From Cyanophora paradoxa CCMP329 (taxonomy: Eukaryota; Plantae; Glaucophyta), in contig QPMI01000567.1 in NCBI GenBank assembly GCA_004431415.1, positions 6,456 to 70,455 of the forward strand: a DNA stretch of 64,000 nt, written 5' to 3'. The notes under the pieces are model-generated. The model had not been told where the DNA came from, ran no database searches, and worked only from the letters and a program-made list of their open reading frames with translations. Shown one piece after another: positions 1 to 31,130 of this stretch; positions within the stretch are counted from its first letter, which is position 1, and the number at the start of each line of letters is the position of its first letter. The position numbers were made by a program, and so were the translations under genes.

Positions 1-947
1 ATGTATGTTTCAGTGAATGCTAGCATATCTGGGATCTTAGAAGTGTCATCAAGGGAGCTTACTATGTGATTTGGAAGTGGGACTGATAGCCTATAGTATC
101 TCCCATAATCCTGATCATAGTTGTAGGGTAACAACTCCTCCATCTTATCAAGGGCAGAAAGCTCACTTGCAGCCATGAGCATGTTAATCAATGGGCTTCC
201 ATCTGTTGAGGCAATCCATGAGAGAATGCCCCAGCTGTTTACAGTCTCATAAGCATAACCCACATAATCAGACTCTAAATGTGGGTCCACCTCACCACAA
301 GAGATACTTATTACTATAATATCATCATCATCACTGTAAATCTTCTTTGCATGGCTGTAACCACACACACTGGGATTATTGTTTCCCGAAATGGCACCAT
401 CAATGAGACAGACAAATACTCCCCGATTGAAATCAACAATGCTTACAGGAGAGAAATATGTAGGAGCAGCAGAAGTAGCCCTAGCAGCAATCTTACAAGG
501 CATAAAGTTGTAGTTGTTGTCATTTGTGATAAATATTGGTTTCATATTCTGAGTATCAAAGGATGTAATCACAATGTCCTTTAGGGAATCCTGTATTAGT
601 GATTCACCAGTAACTGAATTGATTGCAGTCTCCAAGGGTCCCACATCATACTTTGTATTAAAAAGGGCATTTTCGATTATATTTCGAGGATTTGCGAAAA
701 TCAAGGGCAGTTGAGTTAGGTAAATATTGTGTAAATCGTTTGCTGTCAGTTTAGGTTCACCTGGTTTATCAGGATGCCTGATATTCAAACCTATTGCAAT
801 GATCCCACCAGTGGAAGTTCCACTTACAAGATCCACAAGATCGATTATTCTCCTGCCAGTTCGATTTTCGATTTCTTTTAGCAGCCTGGTTATGATAATG
901 CCCCTTGCACCTCCCCCTGATAAAGACAGGCAGATTTTCAAGGGCAT
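1..947 (-). CDS. Patatin-like phospholipase (3'-partial, runs off the left edge)
   Basis: Manual translation from ATG 947: MPLKICLSLSGGGARGIII (oxyanion motif), DLVSGTSTGGIIA (GxSxG nucleophile), ATSAAPTYF, LIDGAISGNNNP (catalytic Asp), SLDDTS near the C-terminus. Confidence 0.93.
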   Translation of the reverse strand, partial: MPLKICLSLSGGGARGIIITRLLKEIENRTGRRIIDLVDLVSGTSTGGIIAIGLNIRHPDKPGEPKLTANDLHNIYLTQLPLIFANPRNIIENALFNTKYDVGPLETAINSVTGESLIQDSLKDIVITSFDTQNMKPIFITNDNNYNFMPCKIAARATSAAPTYFSPVSIVDFNRGVFVCLIDGAISGNNNPSVCGYSHAKKIYSDDDDIIVISISCGEVDPHLESDYVGYAYETVNSWGILSWIASTDGSPLINMLMAASELSALDKMEELLPYNYDQDYGRYYRLSVPLPNHIVSSLDDTSKIPDMLAFTETY

Positions 948-990
948 CTTTTACTTATCAGGAATTTTATAAATCCATATAGTAAAAGCC
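948..990. promoter_or_regulatory. Candidate bidirectional viral promoter with AGTAAAAG on both strands
   Basis: 43-bp divergent gap; CTTTTACT at 948-955 (AGTAAAAG on the minus strand, abutting the patatin ATG) and AGTAAAAG at 981-988; the same 8-mer occurs at 7221-7228. Confidence 0.5.
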
Positions 991-3900
991 ATGAGCTTCA
1001 ATTACCCACCCAATCTAGAAACCATTCAAGATGATAATGCAAGCAGCACCAAGCATGTGAACTTTGATAATATTAAAGTAAAGGGTTCAGTTTCAATTGA
1101 CCACAGTTCCGATAATTCATCCAAGACTCAATCAAGGGAGCATGCTTTATCTGTGAATCAAACTGATCCAAATAAAGAAGATGTCAGTGTTGCTTTTAGT
1201 TTGGGTAATGTGAAAGCCAACCAAGTAGCAGAGATCAAAGCAACAAGAAGGAGACCTAGGAAACTGAAAACCAGTGGCACTCACCCAGATATACCTTCCA
1301 GGTTCGATAGTGGTCGATTGATTTTCAATGTTCAAGATGAGCAGGGCAAACAGAACACAGCTTTGCGAATTTACAATGAGGGCAGCACTGCAAAAGCTGA
1401 GGTCCCCCAAGTTTTGCAAGTTGGTCCTATTGCCAATACAAATCAGGTCTCCTACACAAATGATGTATACCCTAAGGATATTACATATGACTTTGCGAGG
1501 AATGAGCCTTTTGGTTTCTTTACTCCAAAAGATGTCCATCAAAAAAAGCCATCAATTACAATCAACAGTAGCCCCAGTCAACCAGTAGCAATCCATTTAC
1601 ATCCTGATTTAGTCGAAATGGATAGGCACCTTTTGCCTTTGTATAGCAATGTGAAAGACCTTGGAATTCGAACCAGGCAATGGCGAAATATCCATGGCAG
1701 CAATGTGTATGCAAATGGTGAGAAGCTTGTAAGTGAGAAGACCATAAGAGAGATCTTTGAGTATTATGGACCTGTCCCAGTTCCCTTCCCTCTTCCATGG
1801 GATCCACCGGATTTAACACCGAAAAAGCAACCAGGCAGAGAGTACACAGCAACTGAAGATGTAGCCTTTGGGCAGCATATTGTGAGTTGGGAGCAAGTTC
1901 GCAATAAACCTATAATTGAACCCAGAAAGCAAATAGATGAGCAGTATTTACCTCCTGAAGTCGATATATTAGAGCTTGATGAATATCAATTCGTTCCAGA
2001 TGAGGAAGAGTATTTACCAGATGGTTTCGACCCACAAGAGTATGAATATGATCAATATGACCCCAATGAGGAGGAGATACTACCAGATGGCTTAGATCCA
2101 CAAGAGTTTGAGTATGAGCAGAACTATGAACCTGATGAGGAGTATTTGCCAGATGGGCATGATCCACCAGCTGTTGATTATGAGCAACCTTATGAACCCC
2201 ATGAGGAACTATTACCAGATGGATTTCGCCCAGAGATTTGGGAATTCTTCCCTGATTGGGAGCAGATCAACAATAAACCAGCCAGATATCCACCAGAGGA
2301 TCACAACCATGACTGGGATGAGATCTTAGGCAAACCTCAAAAGTATCCACCAGAGGATCACAGGCATGATTGGGGTGATCTGGATGGGATACCAGATAAG
2401 TTTGCAGCAAGCAACCATGAACACACTTGGGATGAGATCAATGACCAACCAGAATTCGCAAAGGTAGAGCCTCTTGATAACTTGGGGGTTTCTCTTTATC
2501 AGACTTGTAATGTCCCTGAAAGAATCTTTTTGAATGAACACTATGTTCATGTGAATGGGACACTTGCGAATTCAGCTATGAGAGGACCACTTCATATTAG
2601 GACACTACCAGGCTCTTATAATCCACCACCTGAACCAGGAGCAACCATACCAAATATCTTTGTGTCAAGCTACATGGAGGCTGACATTCCCACAGATACA
2701 TTCAGAGTCCCAACAGACCCAGCAACCTACCAAAATTTCAACTCTGCTATACAGGTTCATGTAGCAGATGTAAGCAGTTTAGATGGCTCAAGACCAATGA
2801 TAGTATTCAGCAGAGATAAATATTCGTATATTCCCATAGTGGGAACTGCAAATGATAATTATGGGAGGGCAGAGCTTGCATGGATTAAAACCGATTATGG
2901 TGGGGTCCTGGAAGCCAATCAGAGGATGGCAGCAAAAAACATACACAATGAAAATATTTCGAGAGTAGTCACAGAGGATTATTTAGAAGAGCAAGGATAT
3001 ATTGATGAAGGTGAACTCACAAATATTCTTTCTCTTTTTGTGATCAAAAATGACACAAACCTTACAGTCACTTCCAATATCTACACCAGTAACCTTTATA
3101 CAAGTAACATTTTCACAAGTAACCTATGGGCAAGTAACATTTGGACAAGAAAACTATGGGCAGATGATATTTACACAAGTAATCTTACAGTGTATCGAAA
3201 TATAACAATTGGAACACAAAACACTATACAAATACTTTATAGACCTTACTATGCTGTTACTACTGTCATTGATCCAGCCCCAATTATTCCAAATTGTATA
3301 TTTGCATGGAAAGCATCAGGTCAACATGGTCAGTTGATATATTATCAAGGTCAGATATATAACAGAGTTACTACACAGATACCATATCTAACAAATTATT
3401 CGAATTGGGAAACTGTTTATTATTATTTGAATGCAACCCTAAACAATCAAATTTCGATTGGGAAAGAATTAAACATGGCTTATAGGAATAGTGTTTCAAT
3501 AGATTGGTCATTAGGTCTTACATTATTCTTTATAGGTAGGATCAATACTACAAATCCTTCTTATATGTTGAGTATAAGGGATAGTTCTTATCAAAATTGG
3601 ATTGGATATGGTTGTAAAAATCAAAAGTTTGGTGTTTCACTACAAATTCAAAACGATATAGAAAATGCAACTCCTCCATTATTCGATGCATCATATATTT
3701 ATAATTCGTGGAATTATTGGGATTTCACTGTTTCCTCAGAGCAAATTGTCGTAGGAATGGGTGGTATTGATATTGGAACATCATCGGGTGATTTTCTTCC
3801 ACCTTCTAATTTTGCATCATTTGGTTCTTCTGTTGCTAATGGAGATCTTGCCGAAATTATCGTTTTCAATCGTGCGTTATCTATTGAAGAAAAGAACGCG

Positions 3901-6885
3901 GTTAGATATTATATACAATTATTGTATGGATTTCCAAATACGCAGCCCATATTGAATAATGAAGATCTTAAAATTAATTCGAGCAATATATTTATTGAAA
4001 ATCTCACAGTTACCAAAAATGCAACTCTACCACATCATCCAACATCGAATGTTGTTTTAGATTGGTTAGCAAAACAAAAACACACAAAAGCAGATATTAC
4101 GGATTTCGCCCATACTCACACAAAAGATCAAATCACAGATTTCGCCCATACACACACCAAAGATCAAATAACAGATTTCGCACATACTCACACAAAAGAT
4201 CAAATAACAGATTTCGCACATACTCACACAAAAGATCAAATAACAGATTTCGCCCATACTCATTTATGGGAGCATATCACAAATCCTCCGTTAACCTTCC
4301 CACCTGATTCACACACTCATGATTATTCAGAGATTACAAATAGCAACCACAGGCACCCATGGAGCGAAATAGACGAACAGCCAGTTTTTGCCCAATTGAA
4401 TGCAATCGGAAACGTTTTTAATGGAGTCACACTTTACCAATCGAGTAATACACCTGAAAGGCTATTTTTGAATGATCATTATGTTAGTCTCAATGGTTCA
4501 TTTACAGGTCAAGACGGCACACCGATGGTGGGAACTCTTGCAGTAAGATTACCCAGGGATCCAATCGTAAATGGAGTGTATAGTGGCGATTTCAATGTAG
4601 GAGTAAACGATACTTTCCCCAGTATCTATGTTACGAATTATCACCCAGGAGAAATAGGACAAGTAGCGGATTTTTCAGCAGCTATTCAAATTAACGTAAC
4701 AGATCAAAGCGCATATGATGGAGCAAGACCTAAAATAGTATTCACAAGGGAGAAAGTTGTAAACTATCTTCCCGTTGCGGGACAACCCACAGATGATCAC
4801 GGGAAATGTGAGATGGCGTGGATTAAAACGACATCAGGTGGCGCCTTAGAAGTCAATCAAAGAATGGCGGCGAAAAACTTACACAATACAACCCTTTCAG
4901 GTGTCGTTACAGATGATTACCTTACCAATAAAGGATATCTTACCACCGCAGATCTCAGCAGTTATGTAACAGAAACTGAATTAACGACGGCGTTAAATCC
5001 TTACGCAACAGATGCAGAATTAACTACGGCTCTTGCGAATTATTTACCTCTTACAGGTGGAACCGTCACCGGAACCGTTAACGCTACCACTTTACAAATT
5101 GGCGGAACCACAATACCGAAAGGTTACGAATTCGACCAATTAGATACTGTTTCGACAGATAGAAGCGCTAATAATTGGACTGTAACATGGGGAGCGAGAA
5201 CAGGGCAAACAGGGTGTTTTACTACACCAGCAAATGATGAAGATTGCAGCGGTTGTTTTATGCGTTGGATAGTTCCGACAGGTATGAAATCATTTTATAT
5301 TCAGCATTTACCGTGGAGTAGTGGGAGATATTTTGATATCTACGGTCAAACTCTAAATGGGTTTCAGCATTTCTTAAAACGAGTTAATAATTATCAAGCA
5401 ATAGCAACTACCGGAATTCAAGATGGAACACATCCGGCTATTCTCTTTATTTCAATAAATTGTGAGTTTTACAAGTATATTTATGTTCAAGGTCGAAAAG
5501 GTCGCATTCATCTTACGGGGGTTTTCGGTTGGAGTAGACAAAGAGCAACGGATAATGAGGTTGGTATGATCTCTTGGGATAATATATTTAGCAAACCGTC
5601 ATTTTACTCAGCCGCAGACCTTCCACAAACCGCAACATGGGCAACAAATACATGGTTAAAATCAGTAGATGCAGTCGAGCGAATTTGGTTTGGTAATGGC
5701 GATTGCACATATATACGAGGGAGACCGAATGGTGTCGGTGTGTCAATTGAATTTAGAGACTCAGCAGATGGAGCAATTTTAAAGTCTTATAACAATGGTA
5801 ACTTTTGGGTGAAAAACACTATTACAGCACCTACTATTAATGCAACCACCACACTCCAAATAAACGGTAATGATGTCCCAAAGTTTCACACAGTAGATAA
5901 AGCAGTAGGAGGTATTGCATTTAATAGATGTTCTGAGGGTTGGACATGGGCATGGAGTTCAGAATGGGATCCATATTATAATTATGGTTCATATGTTTAT
6001 AATAATCAAACGGATGATCAAACATCTACCGCTTGGATTGACTTCGATATACCCGATGGATACCACACAGGAACAGCATTTTTAACCTATTTACCTTGGA
6101 CTAACTCACGAATTTTTGAAATTTGGGGACTCAATCGACAAGGGAATGAAGTTTTTATTACATCAGTAAATAGTTATCAACCATACAGCACATCTCCTAA
6201 TAGTAACCACAGCGGTTTAAATAATGTTCCTATACATCTCGGTAATCGATTTTTGACTATTCGGATTAGACCAAAGATTGGAAGAGTTCATATTATGGGT
6301 ATAAGTTACATGAAAATTTGGGTTGGACATAGTTATGGAGGTCACACCGGTTATATTCATTGGAATAATGTTTATAGTAAACCAAATATCTTAACAGGGG
6401 CATTGGATCTTTGGTTTAACTCTAATGATGGATATAATCGTATCTATTTTACGAATAATAGCACCACGTATTTTAAAGGAAGAGGAACTTATCCAATAAG
6501 ATTTCGAAATGAATTAGATTCTGATATTTGTTGGATCGATCATGACGGGCGGATGTGGATAAACAATTATTTAACACAAGGAAGTGACAGAAGATACAAA
6601 ACAGATATTAAAAAGATAACCGGCGCTCTTTCAGCAATCGAAAAATTAGAAGGAGTGAGTTTTAAACGAATTGGGAGTGAAAAAGACGGAACAAAATTAG
6701 GTTTAATTGCGCAAGATGTAGAAAAGGTAATACCAGAAATTGTAAGTGTCACAAAAGAAGATGGTTACCTTTCTCTCGAATACACGGGTTTAATTCCAGT
6801 TCTCATTGAAGCTGTGAAGGAGTTGTCCCAAAAATGCAAAGATCTACAGGATCAAATAGACCAAATTAAAAATGTCAAAGTATAA
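991..6885 (+). CDS. Large modular fibre/adhesin protein with C-terminal intramolecular chaperone (peptidase S74)
   Basis: C-terminal SDRRYKTDI...LGLIAQDVEKVIPEIV...LEYTGLIPVLIEAVKEL plus coiled coil; tail-fibre His repeats (HTHTKDQITDF, HxHxWxxIxxKP); TSNxx pentapeptide repeats; LamG/ConA-like end motif GDLAEIIVFNRALS; two internally duplicated domains. Confidence 0.88.
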   Translation: MSFNYPPNLETIQDDNASSTKHVNFDNIKVKGSVSIDHSSDNSSKTQSREHALSVNQTDPNKEDVSVAFSLGNVKANQVAEIKATRRRPRKLKTSGTHPDIPSRFDSGRLIFNVQDEQGKQNTALRIYNEGSTAKAEVPQVLQVGPIANTNQVSYTNDVYPKDITYDFARNEPFGFFTPKDVHQKKPSITINSSPSQPVAIHLHPDLVEMDRHLLPLYSNVKDLGIRTRQWRNIHGSNVYANGEKLVSEKTIREIFEYYGPVPVPFPLPWDPPDLTPKKQPGREYTATEDVAFGQHIVSWEQVRNKPIIEPRKQIDEQYLPPEVDILELDEYQFVPDEEEYLPDGFDPQEYEYDQYDPNEEEILPDGLDPQEFEYEQNYEPDEEYLPDGHDPPAVDYEQPYEPHEELLPDGFRPEIWEFFPDWEQINNKPARYPPEDHNHDWDEILGKPQKYPPEDHRHDWGDLDGIPDKFAASNHEHTWDEINDQPEFAKVEPLDNLGVSLYQTCNVPERIFLNEHYVHVNGTLANSAMRGPLHIRTLPGSYNPPPEPGATIPNIFVSSYMEADIPTDTFRVPTDPATYQNFNSAIQVHVADVSSLDGSRPMIVFSRDKYSYIPIVGTANDNYGRAELAWIKTDYGGVLEANQRMAAKNIHNENISRVVTEDYLEEQGYIDEGELTNILSLFVIKNDTNLTVTSNIYTSNLYTSNIFTSNLWASNIWTRKLWADDIYTSNLTVYRNITIGTQNTIQILYRPYYAVTTVIDPAPIIPNCIFAWKASGQHGQLIYYQGQIYNRVTTQIPYLTNYSNWETVYYYLNATLNNQISIGKELNMAYRNSVSIDWSLGLTLFFIGRINTTNPSYMLSIRDSSYQNWIGYGCKNQKFGVSLQIQNDIENATPPLFDASYIYNSWNYWDFTVSSEQIVVGMGGIDIGTSSGDFLPPSNFASFGSSVANGDLAEIIVFNRALSIEEKNAVRYYIQLLYGFPNTQPILNNEDLKINSSNIFIENLTVTKNATLPHHPTSNVVLDWLAKQKHTKADITDFAHTHTKDQITDFAHTHTKDQITDFAHTHTKDQITDFAHTHTKDQITDFAHTHLWEHITNPPLTFPPDSHTHDYSEITNSNHRHPWSEIDEQPVFAQLNAIGNVFNGVTLYQSSNTPERLFLNDHYVSLNGSFTGQDGTPMVGTLAVRLPRDPIVNGVYSGDFNVGVNDTFPSIYVTNYHPGEIGQVADFSAAIQINVTDQSAYDGARPKIVFTREKVVNYLPVAGQPTDDHGKCEMAWIKTTSGGALEVNQRMAAKNLHNTTLSGVVTDDYLTNKGYLTTADLSSYVTETELTTALNPYATDAELTTALANYLPLTGGTVTGTVNATTLQIGGTTIPKGYEFDQLDTVSTDRSANNWTVTWGARTGQTGCFTTPANDEDCSGCFMRWIVPTGMKSFYIQHLPWSSGRYFDIYGQTLNGFQHFLKRVNNYQAIATTGIQDGTHPAILFISINCEFYKYIYVQGRKGRIHLTGVFGWSRQRATDNEVGMISWDNIFSKPSFYSAADLPQTATWATNTWLKSVDAVERIWFGNGDCTYIRGRPNGVGVSIEFRDSADGAILKSYNNGNFWVKNTITAPTINATTTLQINGNDVPKFHTVDKAVGGIAFNRCSEGWTWAWSSEWDPYYNYGSYVYNNQTDDQTSTAWIDFDIPDGYHTGTAFLTYLPWTNSRIFEIWGLNRQGNEVFITSVNSYQPYSTSPNSNHSGLNNVPIHLGNRFLTIRIRPKIGRVHIMGISYMKIWVGHSYGGHTGYIHWNNVYSKPNILTGALDLWFNSNDGYNRIYFTNNSTTYFKGRGTYPIRFRNELDSDICWIDHDGRMWINNYLTQGSDRRYKTDIKKITGALSAIEKLEGVSFKRIGSEKDGTKLGLIAQDVEKVIPEIVSVTKEDGYLSLEYTGLIPVLIEAVKELSQKCKDLQDQIDQIKNVKV
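1940..2450 (+). repeat. Acidic ~20-aa coding repeats (EEYLPDGxDP) followed by HxHxWxxI repeats
   Basis: Visible in the translation of the fibre ORF. Confidence 0.85.
4080..4265 (+). repeat. 33-bp coding tandem repeat (HTHTKDQITDFA-type, ~5 copies)
   Basis: cacacaaaagatcaaataacagatttcgc-type unit repeated in frame. Confidence 0.92.
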
Positions 6886-6888
6886 TAA

Positions 6889-7194
6889 ATGGCGACCTAT
6901 CCTCTTGGTGGAACCACCTATTCTACTGAGCCTGTTGCGCTTTCTTTTGATACAATCACCCTTGTAAACGCATTACAAACAGTTGAAAAAACGATTCAGC
7001 AAACTAACAAGCTCTCACCAGTTGTCAATGAGTATAAAAACCTCTTGGTTAATGTCCTTGCCAAATCTGCATATGGTGACCCTGTTGCTAAATACACTGA
7101 GTGTGATAACAATATTAAAGCAATGACATCCAACCTTCAAACACTTTCAGTTGCCTACCAATCCCTTGGATCGAATTTAATCACTTTGGCTTGA
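6889..7194 (+). CDS. Hypothetical 101-aa helical viral protein
   Basis: ATG 3 nt after the fibre stop; same strand; amphipathic, heptad-like composition. Confidence 0.7.
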   Translation: MATYPLGGTTYSTEPVALSFDTITLVNALQTVEKTIQQTNKLSPVVNEYKNLLVNVLAKSAYGDPVAKYTECDNNIKAMTSNLQTLSVAYQSLGSNLITLA

Positions 7195-7233
7195 TTGCAG
7201 TTTATTTTTCTTTCCTTCTTAGTAAAAGAAGCA

Positions 7234-8088
7234 ATGGGTGAATATAATCGAGTTCAACTGCCTATATATTCCCTTGGATCCCCTGCAATGCATTTTCGCC
7301 AGCATGAAGTAAATGATGAGGTTCGTGGTTTAGAATCCACAGAGAGACCCAATTCCAATGGCAACTCCTTTGATAAAAATTCGATTATTCGAGTTAAAGA
7401 GCTGAGAGCTGATAAGAATTCTGGTGTGGTTAAAACAACTCGACTTCTTGTCACAAATGCTAACTTCTTTCAGCCTACTAATGGAGGTCCTGATGCTTAC
7501 AGTGTTGATCTGAAAGCCCTTGATTATGATAAAAACACTGCTGCTGTAACTGTGAGATCAGGAGGAGCATTTATTGGTGGTGGCTGCAGAGTTTCAGGTC
7601 AGCTATCTTCATCTGTTTCCTACAATGATGTCCCAGATACTCTCGAACAAAATGTGGAGAACCCACAACGAATTCGTTTCTACACACCTGTTGCACAGCA
7701 ACCTTTTTTGCATTTCTATGTTGCATCCTCTGTAACTCTTGAGAATTCGGAATTAGTTTCCATTACAGGAACTGATCGAGTAAGAAGAAATATTCCTCTT
7801 CCCACTGCAATGCTTTCCATGTGTAGAGCCAATAATAATCAACCAGGACACAACTACTTATTCTTTGTTCAAGCTTCGAACCATTTTGGCAGAGGATATT
7901 GTGTTTATAACAATTTGACATTTACCTATGATCTGTTTGTCACTGAGGTTGGAGTATACAATACTATGATTATGGGACTGAGAACAGATATAGCAGCTGT
8001 ATCAGCACTTCGTGGGGTAAATGTTGCTGATATATTCACAACAGGATTTTACCAAGAATTAGATGTAATTGATGACCCAACCCCATAA
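7234..8088 (+). CDS. Short fibre-like viral protein, paralog 1 (start corrected to ATG 7234)
   Basis: Clear paralogy with the next ORF (EVRGLESTE...ELRADKNSGVVKTTRLLVTNANF...SGGAFIGGG); preceded by AGTAAAAG. The fibre-like call is inference. Confidence 0.75.
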   Translation: MGEYNRVQLPIYSLGSPAMHFRQHEVNDEVRGLESTERPNSNGNSFDKNSIIRVKELRADKNSGVVKTTRLLVTNANFFQPTNGGPDAYSVDLKALDYDKNTAAVTVRSGGAFIGGGCRVSGQLSSSVSYNDVPDTLEQNVENPQRIRFYTPVAQQPFLHFYVASSVTLENSELVSITGTDRVRRNIPLPTAMLSMCRANNNQPGHNYLFFVQASNHFGRGYCVYNNLTFTYDLFVTEVGVYNTMIMGLRTDIAAVSALRGVNVADIFTTGFYQELDVIDDPTP

Positions 8089-8111
8089 AAGATATATCCC
8101 TTTAATGTAAA

Positions 8112-8945
8112 ATGGCTGAGCAACCCCCACTTGAACGAATTATTACACCTCAGCTATCATTAGCTGCACCAGCAAACCATGTTCTGCAGCATGCTACTTT
8201 TGATGATGTAGAGGGTCTCCAATCAACAGAGGTCCAACCTACAATGAACACCTTTGGTTCCACCCATAAACTGAGATTACAGGAACTCAGATGTGATAAA
8301 AATAATGGAATAGTTAAGACAACTAAGCTACTTGTTACCAATGCAAACTTTTCTGCTCATTATGGAGACCCAGATAGCTATGGAGATCCTCTTTCTACTT
8401 ATTCTTTTGAATCTAGGTCGGGAGCTATTAACTGCAAATCGGGGGGAGCTTATATTGGTGATGGTCTTAGGGTTGGTGGGGCTGTTGGAGCGCCTTTATT
8501 TGTGAATGATCAACCCAATCCCATTGATCCCAATACAAGAATTCGAACCTATGTCCCCAGCATGAATGCCCCCTATATAATCAAAATATTCCCCATTGTA
8601 GTAAATGAACAGACAGCAGTAGTAGATTCTCTTGTTGAGATTGGTGACCACTACAAGGTTGTTGTGGATATTCCACCAGATGTATATGCTGTATGTCAAG
8701 TGGAGGGTGGAACTCCTAATTTTGCAGTTGTGATCACCCCATATGATAATTTTGGTATTGCTTATCATGGAGTCAATTTCGGTTTGGAAGACTATCAGTT
8801 TCTGGTTAGAGCCACCAAGTTTGGTATCTACAAGTGTGTATTATATGCTGAGAGAACCGATTTTATTGCAAAGCAGAATACCTATGCTGAATACTATGGG
8901 ACAAATCGATATTTCCCCATTTTTGGGCAGGATACTGCTCCATAA
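8112..8945 (+). CDS. Short fibre-like viral protein, paralog 2
   Basis: DVEGLQSTE...ELRCDKNNGIVKTTKLLVTNANF...SGGAYIGDG; C-terminal VxIP..V.ITP...FG..Y...F.V...AERTD pattern resembles C-terminal modules of tail-fibre-associated proteins. Confidence 0.75.
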   Translation: MAEQPPLERIITPQLSLAAPANHVLQHATFDDVEGLQSTEVQPTMNTFGSTHKLRLQELRCDKNNGIVKTTKLLVTNANFSAHYGDPDSYGDPLSTYSFESRSGAINCKSGGAYIGDGLRVGGAVGAPLFVNDQPNPIDPNTRIRTYVPSMNAPYIIKIFPIVVNEQTAVVDSLVEIGDHYKVVVDIPPDVYAVCQVEGGTPNFAVVITPYDNFGIAYHGVNFGLEDYQFLVRATKFGIYKCVLYAERTDFIAKQNTYAEYYGTNRYFPIFGQDTAP

Positions 8946-8967
8946 GAATATTGGTTATATATAGAGT

Positions 8968-9240
8968 ATGGATAGTAAAACAAAAAAGTTTATTGATGCT
9001 GCTATGACAGTTCATGGTAAAGATAAATTCGATTACAGTGAGACACATTACATCAAAGCTCAAGAGAAAGTATCTGTTAGATGTTTGCAGTGTAATAAGG
9101 TGATCCTTACCTATCCCTTTAATCATGTGAAGGGATCAGGTTGCAGGGAATGCAACAAAAAACATTCTCAGGCTTACAGGAAAAGGGCTTCTTCATCAAT
9201 CACAGTGGAATATAGGGATGTTTGCATTAGGTTCGATTAG
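8968..9240 (+). CDS. DUF723-like zinc-ribbon protein
   Basis: F..A..VHG.DKFDYS...Y.....KV...CxxC......P.NH..GSGCxxC pattern, as in domains attached to phage/NCLDV endonucleases. Confidence 0.7.
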   Translation: MDSKTKKFIDAAMTVHGKDKFDYSETHYIKAQEKVSVRCLQCNKVILTYPFNHVKGSGCRECNKKHSQAYRKRASSSITVEYRDVCIRFD

Positions 9241-9269
9241 GTTTAATTAATTTTTCTAAGGTATTCTTA

Positions 9270-9668
9270 ATGGAGACTCAATACAGAGGCTTTCATGTTA
9301 TGCTTGATTACAAGGCTAAATCAGCTATTGCAACAGGACATGAGCATGTTAGCTTCCTAGGTAATTGGATTATGGGAACCCTTGAACAAGCTATATTAAG
9401 ACAAGGCATAAGAATTGTTCATAAACACTGTGAGATATTTGATGGGAAACTATCACCTCCTGGATTTGCATTGGTTCTGCTATTAGATGAAAGCCATTGC
9501 ACAGCTCATTGTTATTCCAATGAAGGCATGTTAGCAATTGATATATTCAGTTGTGGTAAAGAAGCTCAGCATAAAACACAAGCAGTAGCAGATGAGATAG
9601 ATAAAACAATGAATTTCCTCACATTTGAGAAGACTGAGAGAAATAAACATGAAAGATTCCCGTTTTGA
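9270..9668 (+). CDS. speD: S-adenosylmethionine decarboxylase proenzyme, short prokaryotic type (pyruvoyl-dependent)
   Basis: G.H...D N-terminus, P.G....LL.ESH autocleavage site, H after ESH, A.DIFSCG catalytic Cys; 132 aa. Confidence 0.88.
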   Translation: METQYRGFHVMLDYKAKSAIATGHEHVSFLGNWIMGTLEQAILRQGIRIVHKHCEIFDGKLSPPGFALVLLLDESHCTAHCYSNEGMLAIDIFSCGKEAQHKTQAVADEIDKTMNFLTFEKTERNKHERFPF

Positions 9669-9954
9669 TGAGTTTCTATAATGATTTGTTAAAGGATTCC
9701 TTTGTTTTCTAACAATAACATTGATCAGCTACTGTTACAAAAGGATATAATATATCCATTTCCTACAGTAGCTTTCTACAATGATTATTTTCCGGATTCC
9801 GGTTATTGTTTACAGTAGAAATCTAATGTATGATGTAGCCGAAATATGAATGCACCCTACACCTTCAGGTGTAAGATTTCGAATACTATTCGATTTCCTT
9901 ACACTAAAACTCAGCATCTGCCCTAGATTCCCCCTATTATATAATATTTATATT

Positions 9955-10395
9955 AAAGTGGACTCAAGGTTGACTCATATTAATCGTAAAAGTAGTAATA
10001 GTATATGGATTTTGTTACGAATTCAATGCAAGGGTTGACTAAGTGGGTTGAGTTGACTCAAATTTCACAGGAAATATTTGGGACCTAAAGTTTTCTAAAA
10101 AGGATTTCAAAAAATGTGTCAACTCCCCCCACTTAGTCAACCCTGACCATAAACAGTAAGGATTTGAGCTAACATGTATCACAAAGTGAACATTTTGAGT
10201 CCACTTAGAAGATCCACTTTTGAAATCCAAGTTGATTTTGCTTGAAATTTCAAAGTTGATCTAAAAGTGAGTCCACCCTGATTGATTATGGTAACAAAGT
10301 TGACTAAGTTGACTAAGTTGAGTCATCTTAAGAAATTCAAAGAGACTAAGAGTTCAAAATGTTTATGAAAAGTGAGTCAACTTAGACCACTTCTG
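9955..10395. repeat. Subterminal array 1: AAGT(T/G)GACT(A/C)-type motifs in both orientations
   Basis: More than ten GTTGACT/AGTCAAC/GTGGACTC/GAGTCCAC variants; perfect 17-bp inverted pair AGGGTTGACTAAGTGGG (~10031) and CCCACTTAGTCAACCCT (~10128). Confidence 0.8.
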
Positions 10396-10419
10396 ATAAC
10401 AAAGTTAAATATTTAATTG

Positions 10420-10669
10420 ATTTAATCGGAAAAGAACATGATTTAATCGAATTTATTGATATAATTCCGATTAGATTCATTTAGGATTCAATTAAGATCA
10501 ATCGAAGTTATTGATATAATTCCGATTAACTACAATTAAGATACAATATCGATTAATCGAGTTTATCGATATAACATCGATTAAATTAATTGAAAATGCA
10601 TATAAAAATATGAAAATTCAGGTGAAAATTCAAATAAATTAATCGATTTTATTGATATAACATCGAATC
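10420..10669. repeat. Subterminal array 2: four ~29-bp direct repeats AATCGAnnTTAT(T/C)GATATAAnnnCGA
   Basis: Copies at ~10445, ~10500, ~10555 and ~10641. Confidence 0.85.
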
Positions 10670-10742
10670 ACACATATGAATATTCATATTTTAATCCTGA
10701 GGCGGAACGCCGAGGGATTAAAATATGAATATTCATATGTGT
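10670..10742. other. Terminal hairpin: 28-bp perfect inverted repeat with inner GGCG-GAA-CGCC mini-hairpin
   Basis: ACACATATGAATATTCATATTTTAATCC (10670-10697) pairs with 10715-10742; each arm contains the 16-bp palindrome ATATGAATATTCATAT. Confidence 0.92.
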
Positions 10743-10765
10743 ATAGTGTTATAAAATATCCGAAC

Positions 10766-13700
10766 CGAGACGGCGCCGGTCTTCGCGGCGACGGGGGCGA
10801 CCGAAGCGAAGAACGTGACGAGCGAGCCAGCGGTCTGACGGGATCGGAGGCGGGCTCGAATTCAGAGCCGTTGCGTGGAAGAGGTTTTTATATTGAGCAC
10901 CTTGGCATCAGCGAGGTTCACGCCAGACTTCGTGGCCTCCTGGTTAACGACCTGCAGTAAAAGGCTGCATTCAGACTGCGAAAGAGACCGAATAAAACGA
11001 CGCTGGAATTCAAGGGCGGACGTTCATGACGTTGGTGAGGGCGCCGGAGAGGGACGAGAGGATGTCACTGCTGGCCCCGGTGGTCTGACGCAGGGCGCGC
11101 CGCAGGCGCAGCTTCACGCCGGACGCGCTGCTGTAGTAGGACTTCAGCGTCTCGACCAGGGCGAGGATCTTCTGCAGCTTAGTCTCGAACGCGTCGTTGC
11201 TCTGCCGCAGGGCGTCAAGGTACGATCGCGGGCGAAGAAACCACTGGCTGATCATGAAAGTGTCTGAAACGCGGACCTGGGTGATCGCCGTCATCTGCGA
11301 ATTGAACGTGTCGACGACGCTCTGCGATGCGTGAGCAAAGTCAGATGACAATGCAAGAGAACGGATGCTTTCGAATTTAAGAGTGAAGCACCTTGAAAGC
11401 GGCCACGGCGTCCGCGGAGGTGTTCGTGGAGACCAACGGCTTCACCTCCACCGCAGTGGTGATGGGGAAGGAGGCGGTCAGCCCCTTCGTGTCCTTGACG
11501 ACGACCGTGAGCTTGGCGGTCTTCGTCGTGCCGTCGTTCTGCAACACGAAATTCATTTCCGTGCCTTGAGTGCATTAATTCTATCTAGATCTATCGAGGA
11601 AGACGCACAGAAGGGAAGAAGAAGTCGATGGTCGGCGTGGTAGAGTCGATCGCGAGCGGCGAAGCGAAGATGTCGGCGCGGACGGTGTACCTGCATCAGA
11701 TATTAATGTGTGCGAAAAGCTGCAGCTGACGTGCGCGTGAATGTCGAGGTCGGGCTGCTCACACGAGGGGGGTAGAAGCGGACTGCCAGCCAGAGCACGT
11801 CACCTGCGGGCAGAGTTTCAAGTTTAATTTGAACTCGTCGTGAATGTAAAGCTTGAGGCTAACTCACCGTGACCTTGTCGAGGGCCGCCTGGGCGGAGAG
11901 CGGGGAGACCGAGCACGAGCCTCCAGTGGGAGGAGAGCTGGAATCGACCGGGCCCGGGGTCGTGACGTCGACGACGGGGGTCGGTGTGGGCTCGGGCTCG
12001 GGCGCCGGGGTCGGAGACGGCGTGGGCGTGGGGGACGGCGAAGGCGTCTGCGACGGGGTCGGTGACGGGCTGGGCGTCTGGCTGGGCGTCGGCGTCGGCG
12101 GCCGAGTCGGCTGCGGTGCGAGCGGCCCAGTAAAGACTGCCGCGAAGGTGCAGCCATCAGCACTCGCGCGCGCGCGAGGGTAATATCTGATCAACAGAGC
12201 GGTGACCACGCACGGCGCATTCCCCAAGCCTCGGGCCGCACCCACGCCGCCGGGCTCGTCAGAGCCGGGCAGGTGGTCGCAAAGCCGGTGGCCGAGTAGG
12301 TATAGGGGGTGAAGATGAAGTCGTCGTCGCTCTCGTCCGCCGTTCCCTTATCATCGAGGCTTTCCGCCTCGACCACCCTCGACAGCGTTTTTGCTGTGCA
12401 GGTCCGCGTGGTGTCAATTCGCCGGCTTCGGTAGCCTCCAACCACGTATCTGCAACGTGCCGGGTGCATTGTGAGCGTGGCTTGCGCAAACAAAGAAAAG
12501 TATGTTACAAAACGCGCACATGTTGCAGTCACCGTCGTACGCACTCGCCCCGAACGCCAAGAGGGGGCGCTTCCGATGAGCACTTGTGAGCGCAGTGCTC
12601 GTCAGCGCCGCCTGCGAGGTGGCCTTATCGTTGATGAAGTCAGTGCCCGCCGTCCAGGTGACCGCCTTGTCCGTCGTGCCGAAGGTCATCTGGCCGGGGG
12701 ACGGGAAGCTGGTGTCCAGGTACACCATGCTCGACGGGGCCGTCTTGAGGTTGGTCACGTTGCTGGCTGTGATCGCCGATTTCGCAATTAATTGCAAGGC
12801 AAACAGCGGAAACGGTATTCACGCAAGCGTATATAGTTATGAAATACAGTCTAGTCTACTACAACCCGCAACGCACTCTGTGGATCGTAAACCGCAACGG
12901 TTGCGTCTCCGGTCCATCGCCCCTCTTTGAACATAGTCTCGTTGTAATATACTCCGGACCACCCGCTGAAAGAGACGAGGCTGTACATGAAGAGCTTGTT
13001 GTTGCAAATCCCAACAAACGGCGCTTCAAGGGCCGCTGCGTAAGTGTCATCGACTTCTGTTAGCTCTACTCCTGCCGCCGCAGCTTCGCTTGATGTCAAC
13101 GTTTTCGTTTCCGATGGCCTGGGCCAGACGTCAAAGTGCTCTGACATGTTCCGAGCTTGCAAGTCGATGACACTGCAATGCATACCCGGGGCCGTCACGC
13201 AAATGAAATGAAAGGATGTAAATATAATCAAGAACAGCTCAAACAAATTTGCGCACAAGAGGGTGTTCATTGCTGAAGACGCGACGTAACCATCGAATGC
13301 ATCTTTCGTTTCGACCCCGCCAACGACGTACCAGTTCTTCCCTGTGATAATGGTGCGCATGCGTTGGCCGTCTTTTGCGCACAGCAAAAAGCAGCATCGC
13401 ACCGTCGCGAGCGCAGCTCATGAAGGCGTTCTTCCGAATTTTATTGCCCAATGTGTCCTGGTTCAGTGTCCCAGCGTCATCATATTCCGGCGGGTTGGGA
13501 AAATCGAGAATCGTCTCCCACGTGCCGTTCGTGATGTTGTACCTGCACAATTTCGGTACCGTTATGAATCTTCAGAAACGTTTGCAGTAATCGATAAGCA
13601 CCGCGCGCACCGGTAAATGTTGATATTTGCGCCGGAGTTCCCATCCGGAAGCCCATACACCCCGCCCACAATCTATGAGGTGCGAAAAATTGACTTCAAT

Positions 13701-14773
13701 ATAAAAAACTTGTAAGCAGTATGACTATAATAGATAATTGTACCCAGACGCCATCTTCGAAGACAGTCATGCACGCGCCGTAGACCCCACCGTTCGGAAT
13801 GGGCGCGAGCTCGGTGATCGTTCCCAGGCTGGTGTCCACGCTGTAGAACTTGTCGGAGGAGAGCGGATACTGGGGAACCTTCGCCGAATTTTCATCGTTC
13901 GAATCCAACAGATCGTACTTGAAGCCCGAGACGCCGCCGCCGCAGTAGATCCTGCTGGACTCGCCGACGACCTCGTCCCAGGCGCAGTGCGACCAGATCG
14001 TTGCGTTCGGCGCAGTGAGCGGCGCCTTCGTGAACGACCAGACCGAGATAGGGCCGCCGCCTGCGTTTTCCCGACATCATGATTAGCTGGTTACATAAAC
14101 AGCCGCATCATAGCTATCTCCAAAGACTTCTGCGCAGAAACGAACGCATCGAAGAACAAACGCACTGATATCTGCGGACCAGAAGTCGTCTAGCAGCGCT
14201 GAAGTGACAGCCTGCATAGTTGTCACTCCCGCAACGCTCTTGTGCTTCCATATCTGGTCATAAAAGATTGCTCCATCGGGTTGCGGGTTTGGTACTTGGA
14301 CACTGTCGTAAGGTCGCCACTCCTCGAACGCGTCTCCGCTGCCGCCCTTCTGGCCGCCGTGGATGAGCATCCGGGCGTTGCCCGAGGGGTCCTTGTAGTA
14401 CACGCTGGCCGCCCCCGCCCGCTTGAGCGTCGGGTTGGCGGTGGCCGCCTGGTTGAGGCCGTCATTGTACAGCGTGCGGATGTGGTACTCGGCTGCCGCA
14501 GTGCGTAGCGCGTTAGCGCGCATGCGGAGCTCGAGATCTAGAGGCCGCATCGTGCATGTTTATTATGCGTATTCAAGCCCGGAAGGCCATGATCATGAGG
14601 GCACACTCAGGTCGGGAAAGCCGCGCGCTACACCTATATATCCCATGGCCAGCAGCGTGCGCACCTGACACGCCGGAGAAGGCGGCGGCCAGGAGCGCGA
14701 TTGCAAGCGCCAGGAGCGCGCCTGTGCCTGCGGCCGGACTCCCACGACGCATCGTTATCTTCAACTTAGCCAT
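10766..14773 (-). CDS. Multi-exon host gene: secreted kelch-like beta-propeller protein with Pro/Thr linker; 3' end apparently cut by the viral element
   Basis: Signal-peptide-like first exon (ALLALAIALLAAAFSGVS); kelch-like motifs (KRAGAAS...MLIHGG, YVVGG); PTPSQTPSPSPTP linker; GC-rich exons alternate with short GT..AG introns (e.g. 10900-10835). Exon structure only partly resolved. Confidence 0.7.
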
Positions 14774-15083
14774 ATATCCGTGGCCGCCAGGCGTCTAGAG
14801 CTAGACTCTAGATCTAGTACAGCCGCTGAACTGCGAACTGCTGCTGGCCCAGTGGCATGCGCAGCCTGCTGCTGCTCCTGAGCTCAAGATCTCAGAGTCT
14901 GTGAGGCTGTGTGCCACAGACTGGCTCACAGTGAGCAGGTCCGACGGTCAGAGCGACCGTTGCAAAAAGCGTTATTTTTTGTCCCATATCAGAGAAGCTG
15001 ATACTTCAAATACTCCATCGCCAACCTCTAGAATAGAAACTGAAATAGTAGACTCAGTTGTACTAGGCCCCGTAACTAGGGTA

Positions 15084-15344
15084 CCGTAGAGCAGGAAAAT
15101 AGTGGGCCGGAAATTAGTGGACTAGAAAACTTGGCCCTCCCTTAGGCAAAATACTGGAGCCCGAAATTAGTGGACCAAAACCTTCTCAGGCTTGTATGGG
15201 GCGGTAATTTTGGGGGGTACTGTATGGGGCAGCCTAGCAGCAGGGAAATACTGGAGCCCGAAATTAGTGGACTGAGTCAAGTTTTCGGTCCACTAATTTC
15301 GGGCTCCACTAATTTTCTGCGTCCAGTATTTTCCTGCTCTACGG
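15084..15344. mobile_element. MITE, Tc1/mariner-pogo type
   Basis: 18-bp perfect TIR CCGTAGAGCAGGAAAATA; TA on both flanks (15082-83, 15345-46); subterminal AAATTAGTGGA repeats; no ORF. Confidence 0.88.
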
Positions 15345-15411
15345 TAGCAGAACTTCGGAAGCCAACTTAAGCTTGAAGGCCGGGCCTCCTCCGAGTCAGA
15401 GGCTCCGACTA

Positions 15412-16347
15412 CCGTGTATTCGGCGTGTAATACTTAATTAGTGCGCCACAAATCACTGCCGCAGTGCGCCACTCACGCGGCCGAGTCACTGAGTCCGCGG
15501 CGCGGCGGCGCCGCCGCGCCGGCCGTCCGCCGACTCGGCGCCCAGTCGGACGCGGTCGATCGGCGGACTCGGCGGCGGATCCCGGACTCCTGGACCCGGA
15601 GTCGGCGCCGACGTCGACTCGCGAGTCGCGATCGCCGCCGAGTCGGCGGCGAGACCGTGAGACTCTGATCATGCATGATGAGAGTCCGGGGCCTCCGGGA
15701 TCCGGGCGGCTGTCCGGCGCCGCCGCGCCGATGATCGCGATCTCAGCCGATTCTCAGGATCTCGGCCCGGGGCCCGGGGGCCGGGGCGGCGGGGCCGGGC
15801 CGGCGACCGCGGCCCGTCCGAGCCGACTCCGAGGGCCCGTCCGGCGTCCGGTCGCCCGCCGAATCCGATGATCGCGATCGGCGCCGATGAAAATTAATTA
15901 AACTCGGCGTCCCGGCCCGGGTCCCGCCGCCGGCGCCGGGCTGCCGGGCCGATCCGGATCCGACTTCCGGATTCCGGATCGGACTCCGGGATCCGGTCCA
16001 TTCGAATTCGAATTCGGAGTCCGGACTCCGGACCCGGGACTCCGGGACCGTCGGACTCGCGATCGGCCCGGATCGGGGATCGAGGCCGCGGCCGGGCGGA
16101 TCCTGAATCCTGATGATGTCATCATGATCATCGATATCATGATCATGGCATGAATTCTTTTTTATGTGAATAAATGTGCGTATAAAAACCGTATATACGT
16201 GCGTATATATATACACGCGTACGCATATATGGCAATATATGCCTTTCCGAGTTTCCCTTAAGCGCCGGCCGGGCTTGCTCGACGGCCGCATCGATATTGT
16301 CGGCGAATATAAATATATATTATAATTTGTCGCCGTCGGCGCCACGG
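15412..16347. other. Palindrome-dense low-complexity tract, possibly a decayed CCGT-ended TIR element
   Basis: Bounded by TA|CCGTG and CACGG|TA; interior built from CCGG, GATC, GACTC/GAGTC, ATGATCAT and TATA/CGTA words. Confidence 0.4.
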
Positions 16348-17477
16348 TAGTAATCGGTACTGTACCAGCCTGACAGTGTACCCGGGTGATGCGGCACATG
16401 ATCGTCGCTAGCTTCGCTCCGTTCCGAACTAAGTACTGTAGGAATGCTTTTTTAGCCGATGTTTTAAATTGCCGTATATTGAACCGTCTCATTTACCTAT
16501 GGCTGGACCGTAGCTAGCCAAAAAAACTCGCAGACGCAGCTAAAAAACCCGACGCACTCATAAACTGGCGTCGCTAGAAACCTCTGTGGCCGTCGCTGGC
16601 AGGAAAATAATTAGAATGATTGCTGTCAATGGGATTCCAGCTAACGGGTCAGGGGTCGAGCTAGCGCTTGGAAAACGGTTCGCGAGTCAATCGCGCAGTC
16701 GAGTTTTCGTCTGCGAATGAAGGGAGGGTACAGGTGGATACACCCCCCAACGAACGACGGGAGGGTACGATTCCTCCTGCGTACTACGCAGGAGGCCGCC
16801 AGCAGGCGGCTGCAGTTCCTCTTTAGCTAGTGCCAAAGCGCACGCCTGCGGCCCGAATGCGGCCCGTCAGCTTGCCGTCGCCGGCCAGCAACGGCTACTA
16901 CGCCAACGACTCCCCGGAGTTCGCGGGTCCGCTGTTTCAGCGTCGGCTACGTTCAGAGAGCTCAGTAAAAGGCTGCCGAACCTCAGCCGCAGCCCCGGCG
17001 GATGCCGCACGAGAATGCAGATGCCCCGATGCGACGGCACTTTCAGGCCCGCACGGTGCCCTGCAGACTGATGCTACACTTGCTGTAGGTGCTCTCGTGC
17101 TGGCACACTGCCTGCTCACCCGGCCTCACCGCCCGCTGCCTCATCCGCCCGATGCTGACCTCTTTGACCTCGCAGTCCGAGCTCACTGAGTCAGGCGACG
17201 TGCTGAATGGATGAAGCGTTGTTTTTAGCTAGCTTTGCGTGTACTGGTGACCCCACTTGAGTCCCGAACAGTCGGCGCCCGCCACACCGTACCGTGCGCT
17301 CGGCCCTCGCGAGCCTCCAACAGCGGCACGGCGGCGCCTCTCCCGCGATGCGTGCGCGTCCCTCTGATGCCCCGCCGCCTGGGCACTGCGACGCCTCGCC
17401 GCCCCGCCTCGCTGACGGCCTTGCACAGCTCGGGGCTGTCCTCCCGCGGCCCTTGTGAGGCGAGTCTGAAGAGGAAC

Positions 17478-18850
17478 TCCCGCCCCGCCTCGGCCTCGCG
17501 CAGTGCGCGCCCCGCCTCGCCCCCGGGCCCCGCCCCGGCCCCGGCCTTGCATCGCTGACTTCTCTGCGCAGCGCCGCGGGCTTTCTGCCCCGCACAAGCT
17601 CCTCCCGCCCCGCCTCGGCCTCCCGCCCCGCCTCGGCCTCGCGCAGTGCGCGCCCCGCCTCGCCCCCGGGCCCGCCCCGGCCCCGGCCTTGCATCGCTGA
17701 CTTCTCTGCGCAGCGCCGCGGGCTTTCTGCCCCGCACAAGCTCCTCCCGCCCCGCCTCGCCTCCCGCCCCGCCTCGGCCTCGCGCAGTGCGCGCCCGCCT
17801 CGCCCCGGGCCCCGCCCCGGCCCCGGCCTTGCATCGCTGACTTCTCTGCGCAGCGCCGTGGGCTTTCTGCCCCGCACAAGCTCCTCCCGCCCCGTCTCGG
17901 CCTCCCGCCCCGGCCCTGGCCTCGCGCAGTGCGCGCCCCCGCCTCGCCCTGGGCCCCGCCCCGGCCCCGGCCTTGCGTCGCTGATTTCTCTGCGCAGCGC
18001 CGCGGGCTTTCTGCCCCGCACAAGCTCCTCCCGCCCCGCCTCGGCCTCCCGCCCCGCCTCGGCCTCGCGCAGTGCGCGCCCCGCCTCGCCCCGGGCCCCG
18101 CCCCGGCCCGGCCTTGCATCGCTGACTTCTCTGCGCAGCGCCGCGGGCTTTCTGCCCCGCACAAGCTCCTCCCGCCCCGCCTCGGCCTCCCGCCCCGCCT
18201 CGGCCTCGCGCAGTGCGCGCCCCGCCTCGCCCCCGGGCCCCGCCCCGGCCCCGGCCTTGCATCGCTGACTTCTCTGCGCAGCGCCGTGGGCTTTCTGCCC
18301 CGCACAAGCTCCTCCCGCCCCGTCTCGGCCTCCCGCCCCGGCCCTGGCCTCGCGCAGTGCGCGCCCCCGCCTCGCCCCTGGGCCCCGCCCCGGCCCCGGC
18401 CTTGCGTCGCTGATTTCTCTGCGCAGCGCCGCGGGCTTTCTGCCCCGCACAAGCTCCTCCCGCCCCGCCTCGGCCTCCCGCCCCGCCTCGGCCTCGCGCA
18501 GTGCGCGCCCCGCCTCGCCCCCGGGCCCCGCCCCGGCCCCGGCCTTGCGTCGCTGATTTCTCTGCGCAGCGCCGCGGGCTTTCTGCCCCGCACAAGCTCC
18601 TCCCGCCCCGCCTCGGCCTCCGCCCGCCTCGGCCTCGCGCAGTGCGCGCCCCGCCTCGCCCCGGGCCCGCCCCGGCCCCGGCCTTGCATCGCTGACTTCT
18701 CTGAGCAGCGCCGCGGGCTTTCTGCGGGTCCCCTTGAGCCAAGCGCCCGCGCAATGCGGCAAGCTCCTCCGGGATCCCGCCCCGCCTCGGCCTCGCGCAG
18801 TGCGCACCACGCCTGGCCGCCCGCACCCGGCCCCGCCCCGGCCTTGCGTT
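17478..18850. repeat. GC-rich ~142-bp tandem repeat, ~9.5 copies
   Basis: CCTTGC(A/G)TCGCTGA anchor at ~17545, 17687, 17827, 17971, 18112, 18255, 18400, 18543 and 18682. Confidence 0.95.
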
Positions 18851-28800: not shown

Positions 28801-28930
28801 CCCCCGCCGCCCCTCCCTGCCCTCGTACACATCCCCGAACTCCTCTTCTCCCTCGTCTCCAGTGCGCCGTACCCCTCCCGAACCCGGCGCGGCGCCTCGT
28901 ACCCCGCCCCGACGCCGGCGCCGCTCCGGC
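19829..28930. repeat. 2.6-kb tandem array, block 1 (~3.5 units)
   Basis: Unit anchor TCGCCGGGCCGGCGCTCC at 19829, 22430, 25040 and 27642; the last unit is truncated at 28930. Confidence 0.95.
22146..22201. other. 26-bp-arm hairpin present in every complete 2.6-kb unit
   Basis: TGCCAGCTGCCATACAAACCCAACCA-ctgg-TGGTTGGGAATGTATGGCAGTTGGCA; 23 of 26 positions are Watson-Crick pairs. Confidence 0.85.
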
Positions 28931-29099
28931 GCCGCCCGATGGTGACCCTGTTGCTAAATACACTGAGTGTGATAACAATATTAAAGCAATGACATCCAAC
29001 CTTCAAACACTTTCAGTTGCCTACCAATCCCTTGGATCGAATTTAATCACTTTGGCTTGATTGCAGTTTATTTTTCTTTCCTTCTTAGTAAAAGAAGCA

Positions 29100-29952: not shown

Positions 29953-29975
29953 AAGATATATCCCTTTAATGTAAA

Positions 29976-30808: not shown

Positions 30809-30830
30809 GAATATTGGTTATATATAGAGT

Positions 30831-31101: not shown

Positions 31102-31130
31102 GTTTAATTAATTTTTCTAAGGTATTCTTA

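Follow-up and report, generated by a model that had tools for sequence, protein, structure and literature searches.

In a 64,000-nucleotide stretch of the Cyanophora paradoxa CCMP329 assembly (contig QPMI01000567.1, positions 6,456 to 70,455; hereafter the window), an AT-rich virus-like element, likely a polinton-like virus (PLV), is inserted in GC-rich DNA, and its right end occupies positions 1 to ~10,850. Two blocks of this element have lost almost every CpG that is neither preceded by T nor followed by A, while a block of 3.1 kb between them, which begins inside a fibre-like gene, has kept such CpGs. Writing V for any base but T before CG and B for any base but A after it, the lost class is VCGB; TCGB and VCGA together are referred to as the hemi-class. 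The best reading of this pattern is that a context-reading enzyme has acted on the virus.

The first-pass annotation of this DNA, made from the sequence alone, had counted CpGs by eye in the two depleted blocks, and its counts are right: VCGB makes up 1 of the 38 CpGs in 1-3860 (CCGG at 1807) and 1 of the 24 in 7000-9655 (GCGC at 8490). The pooled fraction of 2/62 compares with 48% expected from composition (binomial P = 3 × 10-15), in line with the prediction of close to one half made there. Counted on both strands of the depleted blocks, the observed/expected (O/E) ratios are 1.21 for TCGA (56/46), 0.30 for the hemi-class (32/105) and 0.02 for VCGB (4/239; 95% confidence interval 0.002-0.06). 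The depletion is graded rather than all-or-none, with TCGA alone spared, and the equal depletion of all NCGN contexts that the annotation had entertained is not what we observe. Overall CpG O/E in these blocks is 0.25, an under-representation that exceeds the effect of codon usage. The neighbouring DNA is CpG-rich in every class, as had been claimed, with VCGB O/E ranging from 1.05 to 1.21 across four regions.

The depletion persists under the codon-preserving control that the annotation had proposed. In 1000 synonymous-codon shuffles over the 6,354 coding bases of the depleted blocks, VCGB is expected 52.7 ± 5.7 times and observed 3 times, TCGB 34.3 and 19 times, VCGA 39.0 and 13 times, and TCGA 23.7 and 28 times. 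At the junctions between codons, the share of C among codons ending in C or T is 0/146 for VC-GB, 6/104 for VC-GA, 5/74 for TC-GB and 11/43 for TC-GA, against a baseline of 239/616 (0.39) before bases other than G. The shuffles and the codon junctions together indicate that neither codon usage nor a uniform loss of CpG explains the pattern. An account in which CGA is retained because it cannot become the stop codon TGA was rejected, since retained CpGs lie in all three frames and TCG is spared as well. Beyond the two immediate flanks, A or T at position -2 gives extra protection, with 73 TCG to 405 TCA/TTG after A/T and 15 to 233 after C/G (P = 2 × 10-4), an effect not found in the undepleted block. 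The lowest VCGB O/E among 43 comparison loci, which are not close relatives and three of which (L036, L037 and L038) overlap in one record, is 0.37.

The annotation had extended the depletion over the whole of 1-9660, and in this it went too far. Between 3861 and 6999, VCGB accounts for 54 of the 108 CpGs (O/E 1.01; 54 versus 47.9 in codon shuffles), which is no depletion at all and differs sharply from the flanking blocks (Fisher P = 1.6 × 10-11), and the best-fit change points for the CpG signature fall at 3875 and 6969. The undepleted block serves as a natural control. The left boundary is crossed by contigs at 3154-4040 (sequencing runs X2 and X5, one difference each) and 3556-4071 (run X1, no differences), that is in three of four runs, and therefore this junction is not an assembly join. 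At the right boundary there is no spanning contig among the pieces listed, and the open reading frame (ORF) there is open. The CpG pattern noted earlier holds for the flanking blocks; both this block and the avoidance of GTAC and GGCC described below had been missed.

Three runs were compared for variants over 4600-5130, and the following counts refer to the best-supported 40 of 75 variant rows. Among C>T/G>A variants, 9 of 12 lie in CpGs (seven VCGB and two VCGA), as do 56 of the 225 C/G positions (P = 2.5 × 10-4); at third codon positions such changes occur at 8/28 CpG and 1/27 other C/G positions (P = 0.025). Other copies have TG or CA in place of several CpGs of this block, and the CpG at 5004/5005 has both variants. 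In run X2 the T alleles at 5076 and 5082 make up 97% and 93% of the summed depth, and most copies appear to be CpG-free at these two positions, where the copy in the window keeps CpG. Some variants instead create CpGs (rows 4944 and 4950, and loose contig ends that contain VCGB words). Depleted and undepleted alleles of one element family thus coexist and recombine in one species, and the module at 3875-6969 was likely recombined in from a sister lineage.

To describe the graded loss, we compared the retained fractions with the undepleted block as baseline: 0.94 for TCGA, 0.37 for the hemi-class and 0.017 for VCGB. If T at -1 and A at +1 are each allowed to reduce activity to ~3%, the negative log-likelihood is 6.55, equal to that of the saturated model; one flank read per strand (19.0) and uniform loss (47.9) do not fit. 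The annotation had seen in the pattern the footprint of a methylase, deaminase or nuclease. The two-flank fit is consistent with a context-reading enzyme, and a nuclease is unlikely given 54 VCGB in 3.1 kb of an arrangement bridged in three of four runs. The palindromy of VCGB, offered there as a sign of an enzyme target, carries no such weight by itself, as any process acting on double-stranded DNA yields a set that is symmetric under reverse complementation.

The reading that we tentatively favour is that the depletion records a C5-cytosine methyltransferase of the virus lineage that works poorly at CpGs with 5'-T or 3'-A, the methylated bases then being deaminated and left unrepaired. Such an enzyme would sense the base on either side of CpG, its activity falling ~30-fold with 5'-T and likewise with 3'-A, and would belong to the virus rather than the host, encoded in the part of the element that lies off the window. 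Methylated VCGB cytosines would then decay to T without repair, perhaps while the DNA replicates outside the chromosome and is packaged, when repair of T:G may be poor. The module at 3875-6969 would come from a sister lineage without the enzyme, acquired by recombination and not yet decayed; a methylase gene present in one sub-lineage and lacking in another would be the simplest account of the mosaic. Most PLV genomes are reported to carry methyltransferase genes (bioRxiv 2026.06.19.733378; also 2026.10.13.758929), and Dcm-like genes are reported in some related viruses (PMC8502044). The retroelement ORFs in the window show no loss of VCGB (279 versus 279.3 in shuffles), which implies that host methylation of chromosomal DNA, if it falls on them, does not erode CpG. 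C5 methylases can directly deaminate C to U when S-adenosylmethionine (SAM) is low, and there is a slim chance that the SAM decarboxylase of the element lowers SAM and pushes the methylase to this reaction.

Several observations weigh against a viral methylase. None of the seven ORFs of the element in the window matches a methyltransferase in Pfam, and tblastn with a viral C5 methylase gave no match at E 1, the rest of the element lying off the window. Tests of mutation against selection are mixed, and the expected products of deamination give no clear answer. The depleted blocks have a TG O/E of 1.32 and the undepleted one of 1.13, but the excess is independent of context (TTGA 1.26, TTGB 1.51, VTGA 1.25, VTGB 1.27). 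Before G, the depleted blocks show no internal rise in T (54 T to 54 A, versus 93 to 83; P = 0.71). Relative to the undepleted block, the TG side is raised (odds ratio 2.8, P = 0.034) but the CA side is not (0.77, P = 0.36). Iridoviruses with a CpG methylase of their own are reported to reach a CpG O/E of only 0.5-0.84 (PMC2396429). The depleted sample is small (~6.5 kb, 62 CpGs), the two-flank fit uses two parameters for three counts, so that its match to the saturated model is expected, and the variant rows are a best-supported selection of unpolarized changes from short contigs. Equally, the undepleted allele may have come in recently from a different host, and a host enzyme would be compatible with that.

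Loss of CpG in the presence of a C5 methylase is itself a known phenomenon. Strong CpG loss is reported in Mycoplasma penetrans alongside its own CpG methylase, M.MpeI (PMC11282364). In that species and in vertebrate iridoviruses, the strong under-representation of CpG, which the element shares, comes with raised TG/CA and is ascribed to their own C5 methylase (PMC11282364, PMC2396429). Unlike these systems, in which all contexts are affected, the element spares TCGA fully (O/E 1.21 versus 0.02 for VCGB). [quoted passage not shown] A graded flank profile is described as typical of the flanking preferences of enzymes (PMC11879396, PMC7381644). The reported preference of M.SssI at -1 is very weak, unlike the strong effect of 5'-T in the element (PMC11879396), and the profile matches neither M.SssI nor DNMT1 as these sources describe them (PMC11879396, PMC7381644). 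The AGCT anomaly of pandoraviruses is similar in that a class of palindromic 4-mers was purged in one lineage and not in a sister lineage in the same host; it differs in concerning one word, replaced at random, whereas the words depleted in the element number nine and are centred on CpG, those with one mismatch are reduced by degrees, transitions are enriched in the variant rows considered, and a single gene is mosaic for the signature (10.1101/712018). The protist Amoebidium, a host with endogenous viruses, is reported to have a CpG methylome that depends on flanking bases; the context there is CGC/GCG, and the effect is one on the level of host methylation rather than a depletion in viral sequence (PMC11244446).

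In the portions of the literature that our searches covered, the CpG-context signature was not found for PLVs, and a VCGB-type context was not found described; subscription journals, REBASE and preprint supplements fell outside these searches. No such context is described in the accessible parts of a study of giant-virus methylomes (PMC7253447), a survey of endogenous viral elements in protists (PMC10120064) and a punuivirus preprint (2026.10.09.758095).

The chief alternative, which we consider doubtful, assigns the methylation to the host: DNMT1 or DNMT3, poor at CpGs with 5'-T and 3'-A, would methylate the provirus or the replicating DNA in the nucleus, CpG would be lost by deamination or because copies that escape silencing are favoured, and the module that kept its CpGs would have arrived recently from another host. 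The likely host is reported to have 32% CpG methylation, methylated repeats and viral genes, two DNMT1 and one DNMT3 (PMC12344493), and the CGC/GCG bias of Amoebidium gives a precedent for context-biased CpG methylation in another protist (PMC11244446). The retroelement ORFs of the window are slightly rich in TCGA (34 versus 23.8 ± 3.3) and VCGA (89 versus 76.6 ± 5.5), and selection would fit the finding that, in the depleted blocks, T is not in excess before G. However, these same retroelements have no loss of VCGB (O/E 1.05-1.09), though repeats of the likely host are reported as CpG-methylated (PMC12344493), and undepleted alleles of the same family are present in runs of the same species. 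Mammalian DNMT1 is reported to disfavour G at -1 and C at -2, not T at -1 (PMC7381644), and vertebrate genomes preferentially to lose CpGs with 5'-T, which is the opposite trend (PMC5054122). In the text available of the host methylome study, no analysis of CpG methylation by flank context was seen (PMC12344493). A host process that strikes integrated copies is unlikely, given that the ORFs are intact and that both the middle block of the same copy and the adjacent retroelements are untouched.

A second palindromic signature bears on whether a nuclease could be responsible. Over 1-10750, GTAC is found once and GGCC never, against 25.6 and 10.3 in codon shuffles, and both are avoided in all blocks; the undepleted module also lacks GTAC (0 versus 9.7, a Markov expectation) and GGCC (0 versus 2.2). 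Restriction avoidance is expected to leave a palindromic site missing throughout, which is what we find in the 10.75 kb of the element in view for GTAC and GGCC and not what we find for VCGB. The avoidance of cut sites runs uniformly along the molecule, the loss of VCGB does not, and the two therefore behave differently. We conclude that the shortage of GTAC and GGCC is likely a case of restriction-site avoidance, the enzymes being those of a helper virus or the host, and is separate from the CpG signature; its presence in both kinds of block suggests a similar environment with different CpG exposure. GCAC/GTGC is also low (10 versus 29 expected in the depleted blocks), as is CTAG (6 versus 17.6), and GTAC is scarce in several unrelated viral loci too.

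It is accordingly unlikely that the CpGs were lost through selection against a very frequent cutter or a restriction factor that reads CpG, encoded by a helper giant virus or by the host, whose proper target would be VCGB and which would show star activity where one base mismatches. The near-total absence at codon junctions (0/146) of a class that is palindromic, the restriction-type avoidance of GTAC and GGCC in the same element, and the report of a 4-mer purge without an identified enzyme in pandoraviruses (10.1101/712018) would all suit such a cutter, but the same molecule holds 54 VCGB in 3.1 kb and 10 more in its terminal palindrome, while the module stays free of GTAC and GGCC. A lethal cutter would not tolerate these sites unless they were methylated, which leads back to a methylase.

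Mutagenesis of integrated copies after insertion, resembling repeat-induced point mutation, is very improbable and largely refuted: the element is seemingly repeated many times and transitions dominate at CpG among the best 40 of 75 variant rows, yet the expected context-specific, ORF-breaking C>T changes across the whole repeat are not seen, the ORFs of the first copy are all open with 15 in-frame CGA codons surviving, 8 of the 9 CpG transitions in those rows are synonymous and some reach >90% of depth, and neither the middle block nor the repeats next to the element are affected. An artefact of codon usage, amino-acid composition or assembly, for which one might cite the small sample of 62 CpGs and the single-base indels in the duplicate copy of the assembly, is hardly credible in the face of the codon shuffles and junction tests, the agreement of public-run contigs with the window across the left boundary (0-1 differences) and the minimum of 0.37 among the comparison loci.

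Features of the window, in positions of the whole stretch
Positions	Strand	Feature	Evidence or remarks
1-3874		CpG-depleted block A, with the patatin gene and the fibre gene's N-terminal half	VCGB 1/38 CpG in 1-3860; change point 3875
3875-6969		Undepleted module: distal fibre with second copy of the repeated domain and S74 chaperone, start of next ORF	VCGB 54/108 CpG
6970-9660		CpG-depleted block B	VCGB 1/24 CpG in 7000-9655
3-947	-	Patatin-like phospholipase ORF, truncated by the window start	PF01734, E 6e-21
991-6885	+	Fibre-like ORF, 1964 aa, CpG-signature mosaic	PF13884 Peptidase_S74, E 1.3e-15; PHROG tail-fibre matches; internal repeat 49% identical
6889-7194	+	101-aa ORF crossing from the undepleted module into block B	No Pfam or PHROG family
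7195-8088	+	Unknown ORF, paralog of the ORF at 8112-8945 (33% identity)	
8112-8945	+	Unknown 277-aa ORF, predicted beta-rich C-terminal domain	2 homologs, 63-64% identity
8968-9240	+	Zinc-ribbon ORF, 90 aa, like the non-catalytic part of phage endonucleases	phrog_681, phrog_559, E ~1e-8
9270-9668	+	S-adenosylmethionine decarboxylase-like ORF (132 aa), last gene of the element	PF02675, E 4.7e-11
9661-10700		AT-rich non-coding end region, TCGA-rich	TCGA 10, hemi-class (TCGB/VCGA) 6, VCGB 3
10701-10850		Imperfect CpG-rich palindrome, likely element end	VCGB 10/21 CpG; folds as hairpin; CGAAG near centre
28939-38328	+	Near-identical duplicate of 7073-16480	99.8% identity, 0 mismatches, 20 gap openings

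The element stands out by its GC content (0.38-0.39, against 0.58-0.71 in the surrounding DNA) and by its summed contig depth in run X2, which is not a copy number: ~20,000-67,000 over most core genes, 330-370 beyond 10800, a drop of ~100-fold past that point. The depth contrast indicates a repeated, variable family of elements, and together with the GC contrast it gives the picture of a multi-copy integrated element distinct from its host that is characteristic of PLVs. At least half of the words of the element are present in 14 of the 24 sequencing runs listed, all 14 from one organism, and adintovirus-like contigs have been reported in Cyanophora paradoxa (PMC8502044). It resembles polinton-like and adintovirus-like elements of protists in being AT-rich, apparently present in many copies and inserted in a GC-rich genome, in its fibre and lipase genes, and in ending with a palindrome. 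The family assignment is provisional: the capsid, ATPase, replicase (pPolB or primase-helicase) and integrase (RVE or YR) genes would sit outside the window, and among the seven ORFs in the right ~10.8 kb of the element we found no match in Pfam or PHROG to double jelly-roll major capsid, penton or A32-like ATPase families. As to terminal inverted repeats, a single AT-rich end with its terminal palindrome is seen, the opposite end of the element lying outside the window. The palindrome is exempt from the CpG depletion.

The fibre gene carries two copies of a domain of ~200 aa, of which the first lies in depleted sequence and the second in the undepleted block, and strong differences in depth along it suggest several exchangeable fibre variants. 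The SAM decarboxylase-like gene retains the ESH cleavage motif, and its best-matching loci among those retrieved (50-52% identity) include a contig with a capsid gene of nucleocytoplasmic large DNA viruses (a giant virus); its product could change SAM levels, and hence methylation, or could serve polyamine synthesis. Fold prediction for the 277-aa ORF was of low confidence and uninformative (pLDDT, the predicted local distance difference test, 42.6; best structural Z 5.0).

Searches of viral contigs with the 277-aa ORF, the patatin, the fibre N-terminus and the fibre motif returned no relative, and an alignment search with the fibre domain returned one weak locus. An alignment of the 277-aa ORF found nothing in metagenome contigs, a phage search gave no match, and no shorter protein proved homologous to residues 40-700 of the fibre. 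The patatin search yielded proteins only 31-42% identical among the matches listed. SAM decarboxylase searches gave 11 and 23 loci, none with the CpG signature and none with the other genes of the element except for zinc-ribbon matches in locus L002. The giant virus in L002, which mildly follows the same rank order (VCGB ~0.5) and encodes a C5 methylase, was dropped as a candidate, since its methylase has homologs in five further loci where the pattern is missing (VCGB 0.64-0.99, TCGA 0.32-0.90).

The 9.4-kb duplicate at 28939-38328, which either arose very recently or is an artefact of assembly, is not independent evidence and was excluded from all counts. The region from 10850 to 16500 (GC 0.58) has broken ORFs, with no Pfam match for the six tested, and is possibly the end of another mobile element; it contains short repeats (15000-15360) and, at 15460-16150, nested palindromes rich in GA/TC. 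An array of tandem repeats, ~143 bp in period, and head-to-tail units of 2.6 kb in two runs occupy 17200-18850, 19855-28900 and 38300-46200. At 48000-55000 there is a long terminal repeat retroelement on the minus strand with integrase, reverse transcriptase and protease, broken by frameshifts, whose CpG is not depleted.

The signature is real, strong and mosaic; this kind of CpG loss is known, its flank context matches no description that our searches found, and we infer the responsible enzyme only from the pattern it left. Viral CpG loss is usually treated as a dinucleotide effect. In this element both flanks influence it strongly, and alleles of a single viral family that recombine within one host differ in it, which provides a built-in control. 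It is possible, at somewhat lower confidence than the viral methylase itself, that a PLV lineage with a C5 methyltransferase of previously undescribed VCGB specificity rewrote its own genome, leaving a lineage stamp by which recombination within single genes could be mapped and roughly dated. If the enzyme is viral, it would add a new methylase specificity to those of PLVs and a possible reagent; if it belongs to the host, the pattern would reveal an unreported flank bias of glaucophyte DNMTs that is strong enough to reshape a virus. In either case, the element offers a tractable case for unexplained purges of k-mers like those in pandoraviruses.

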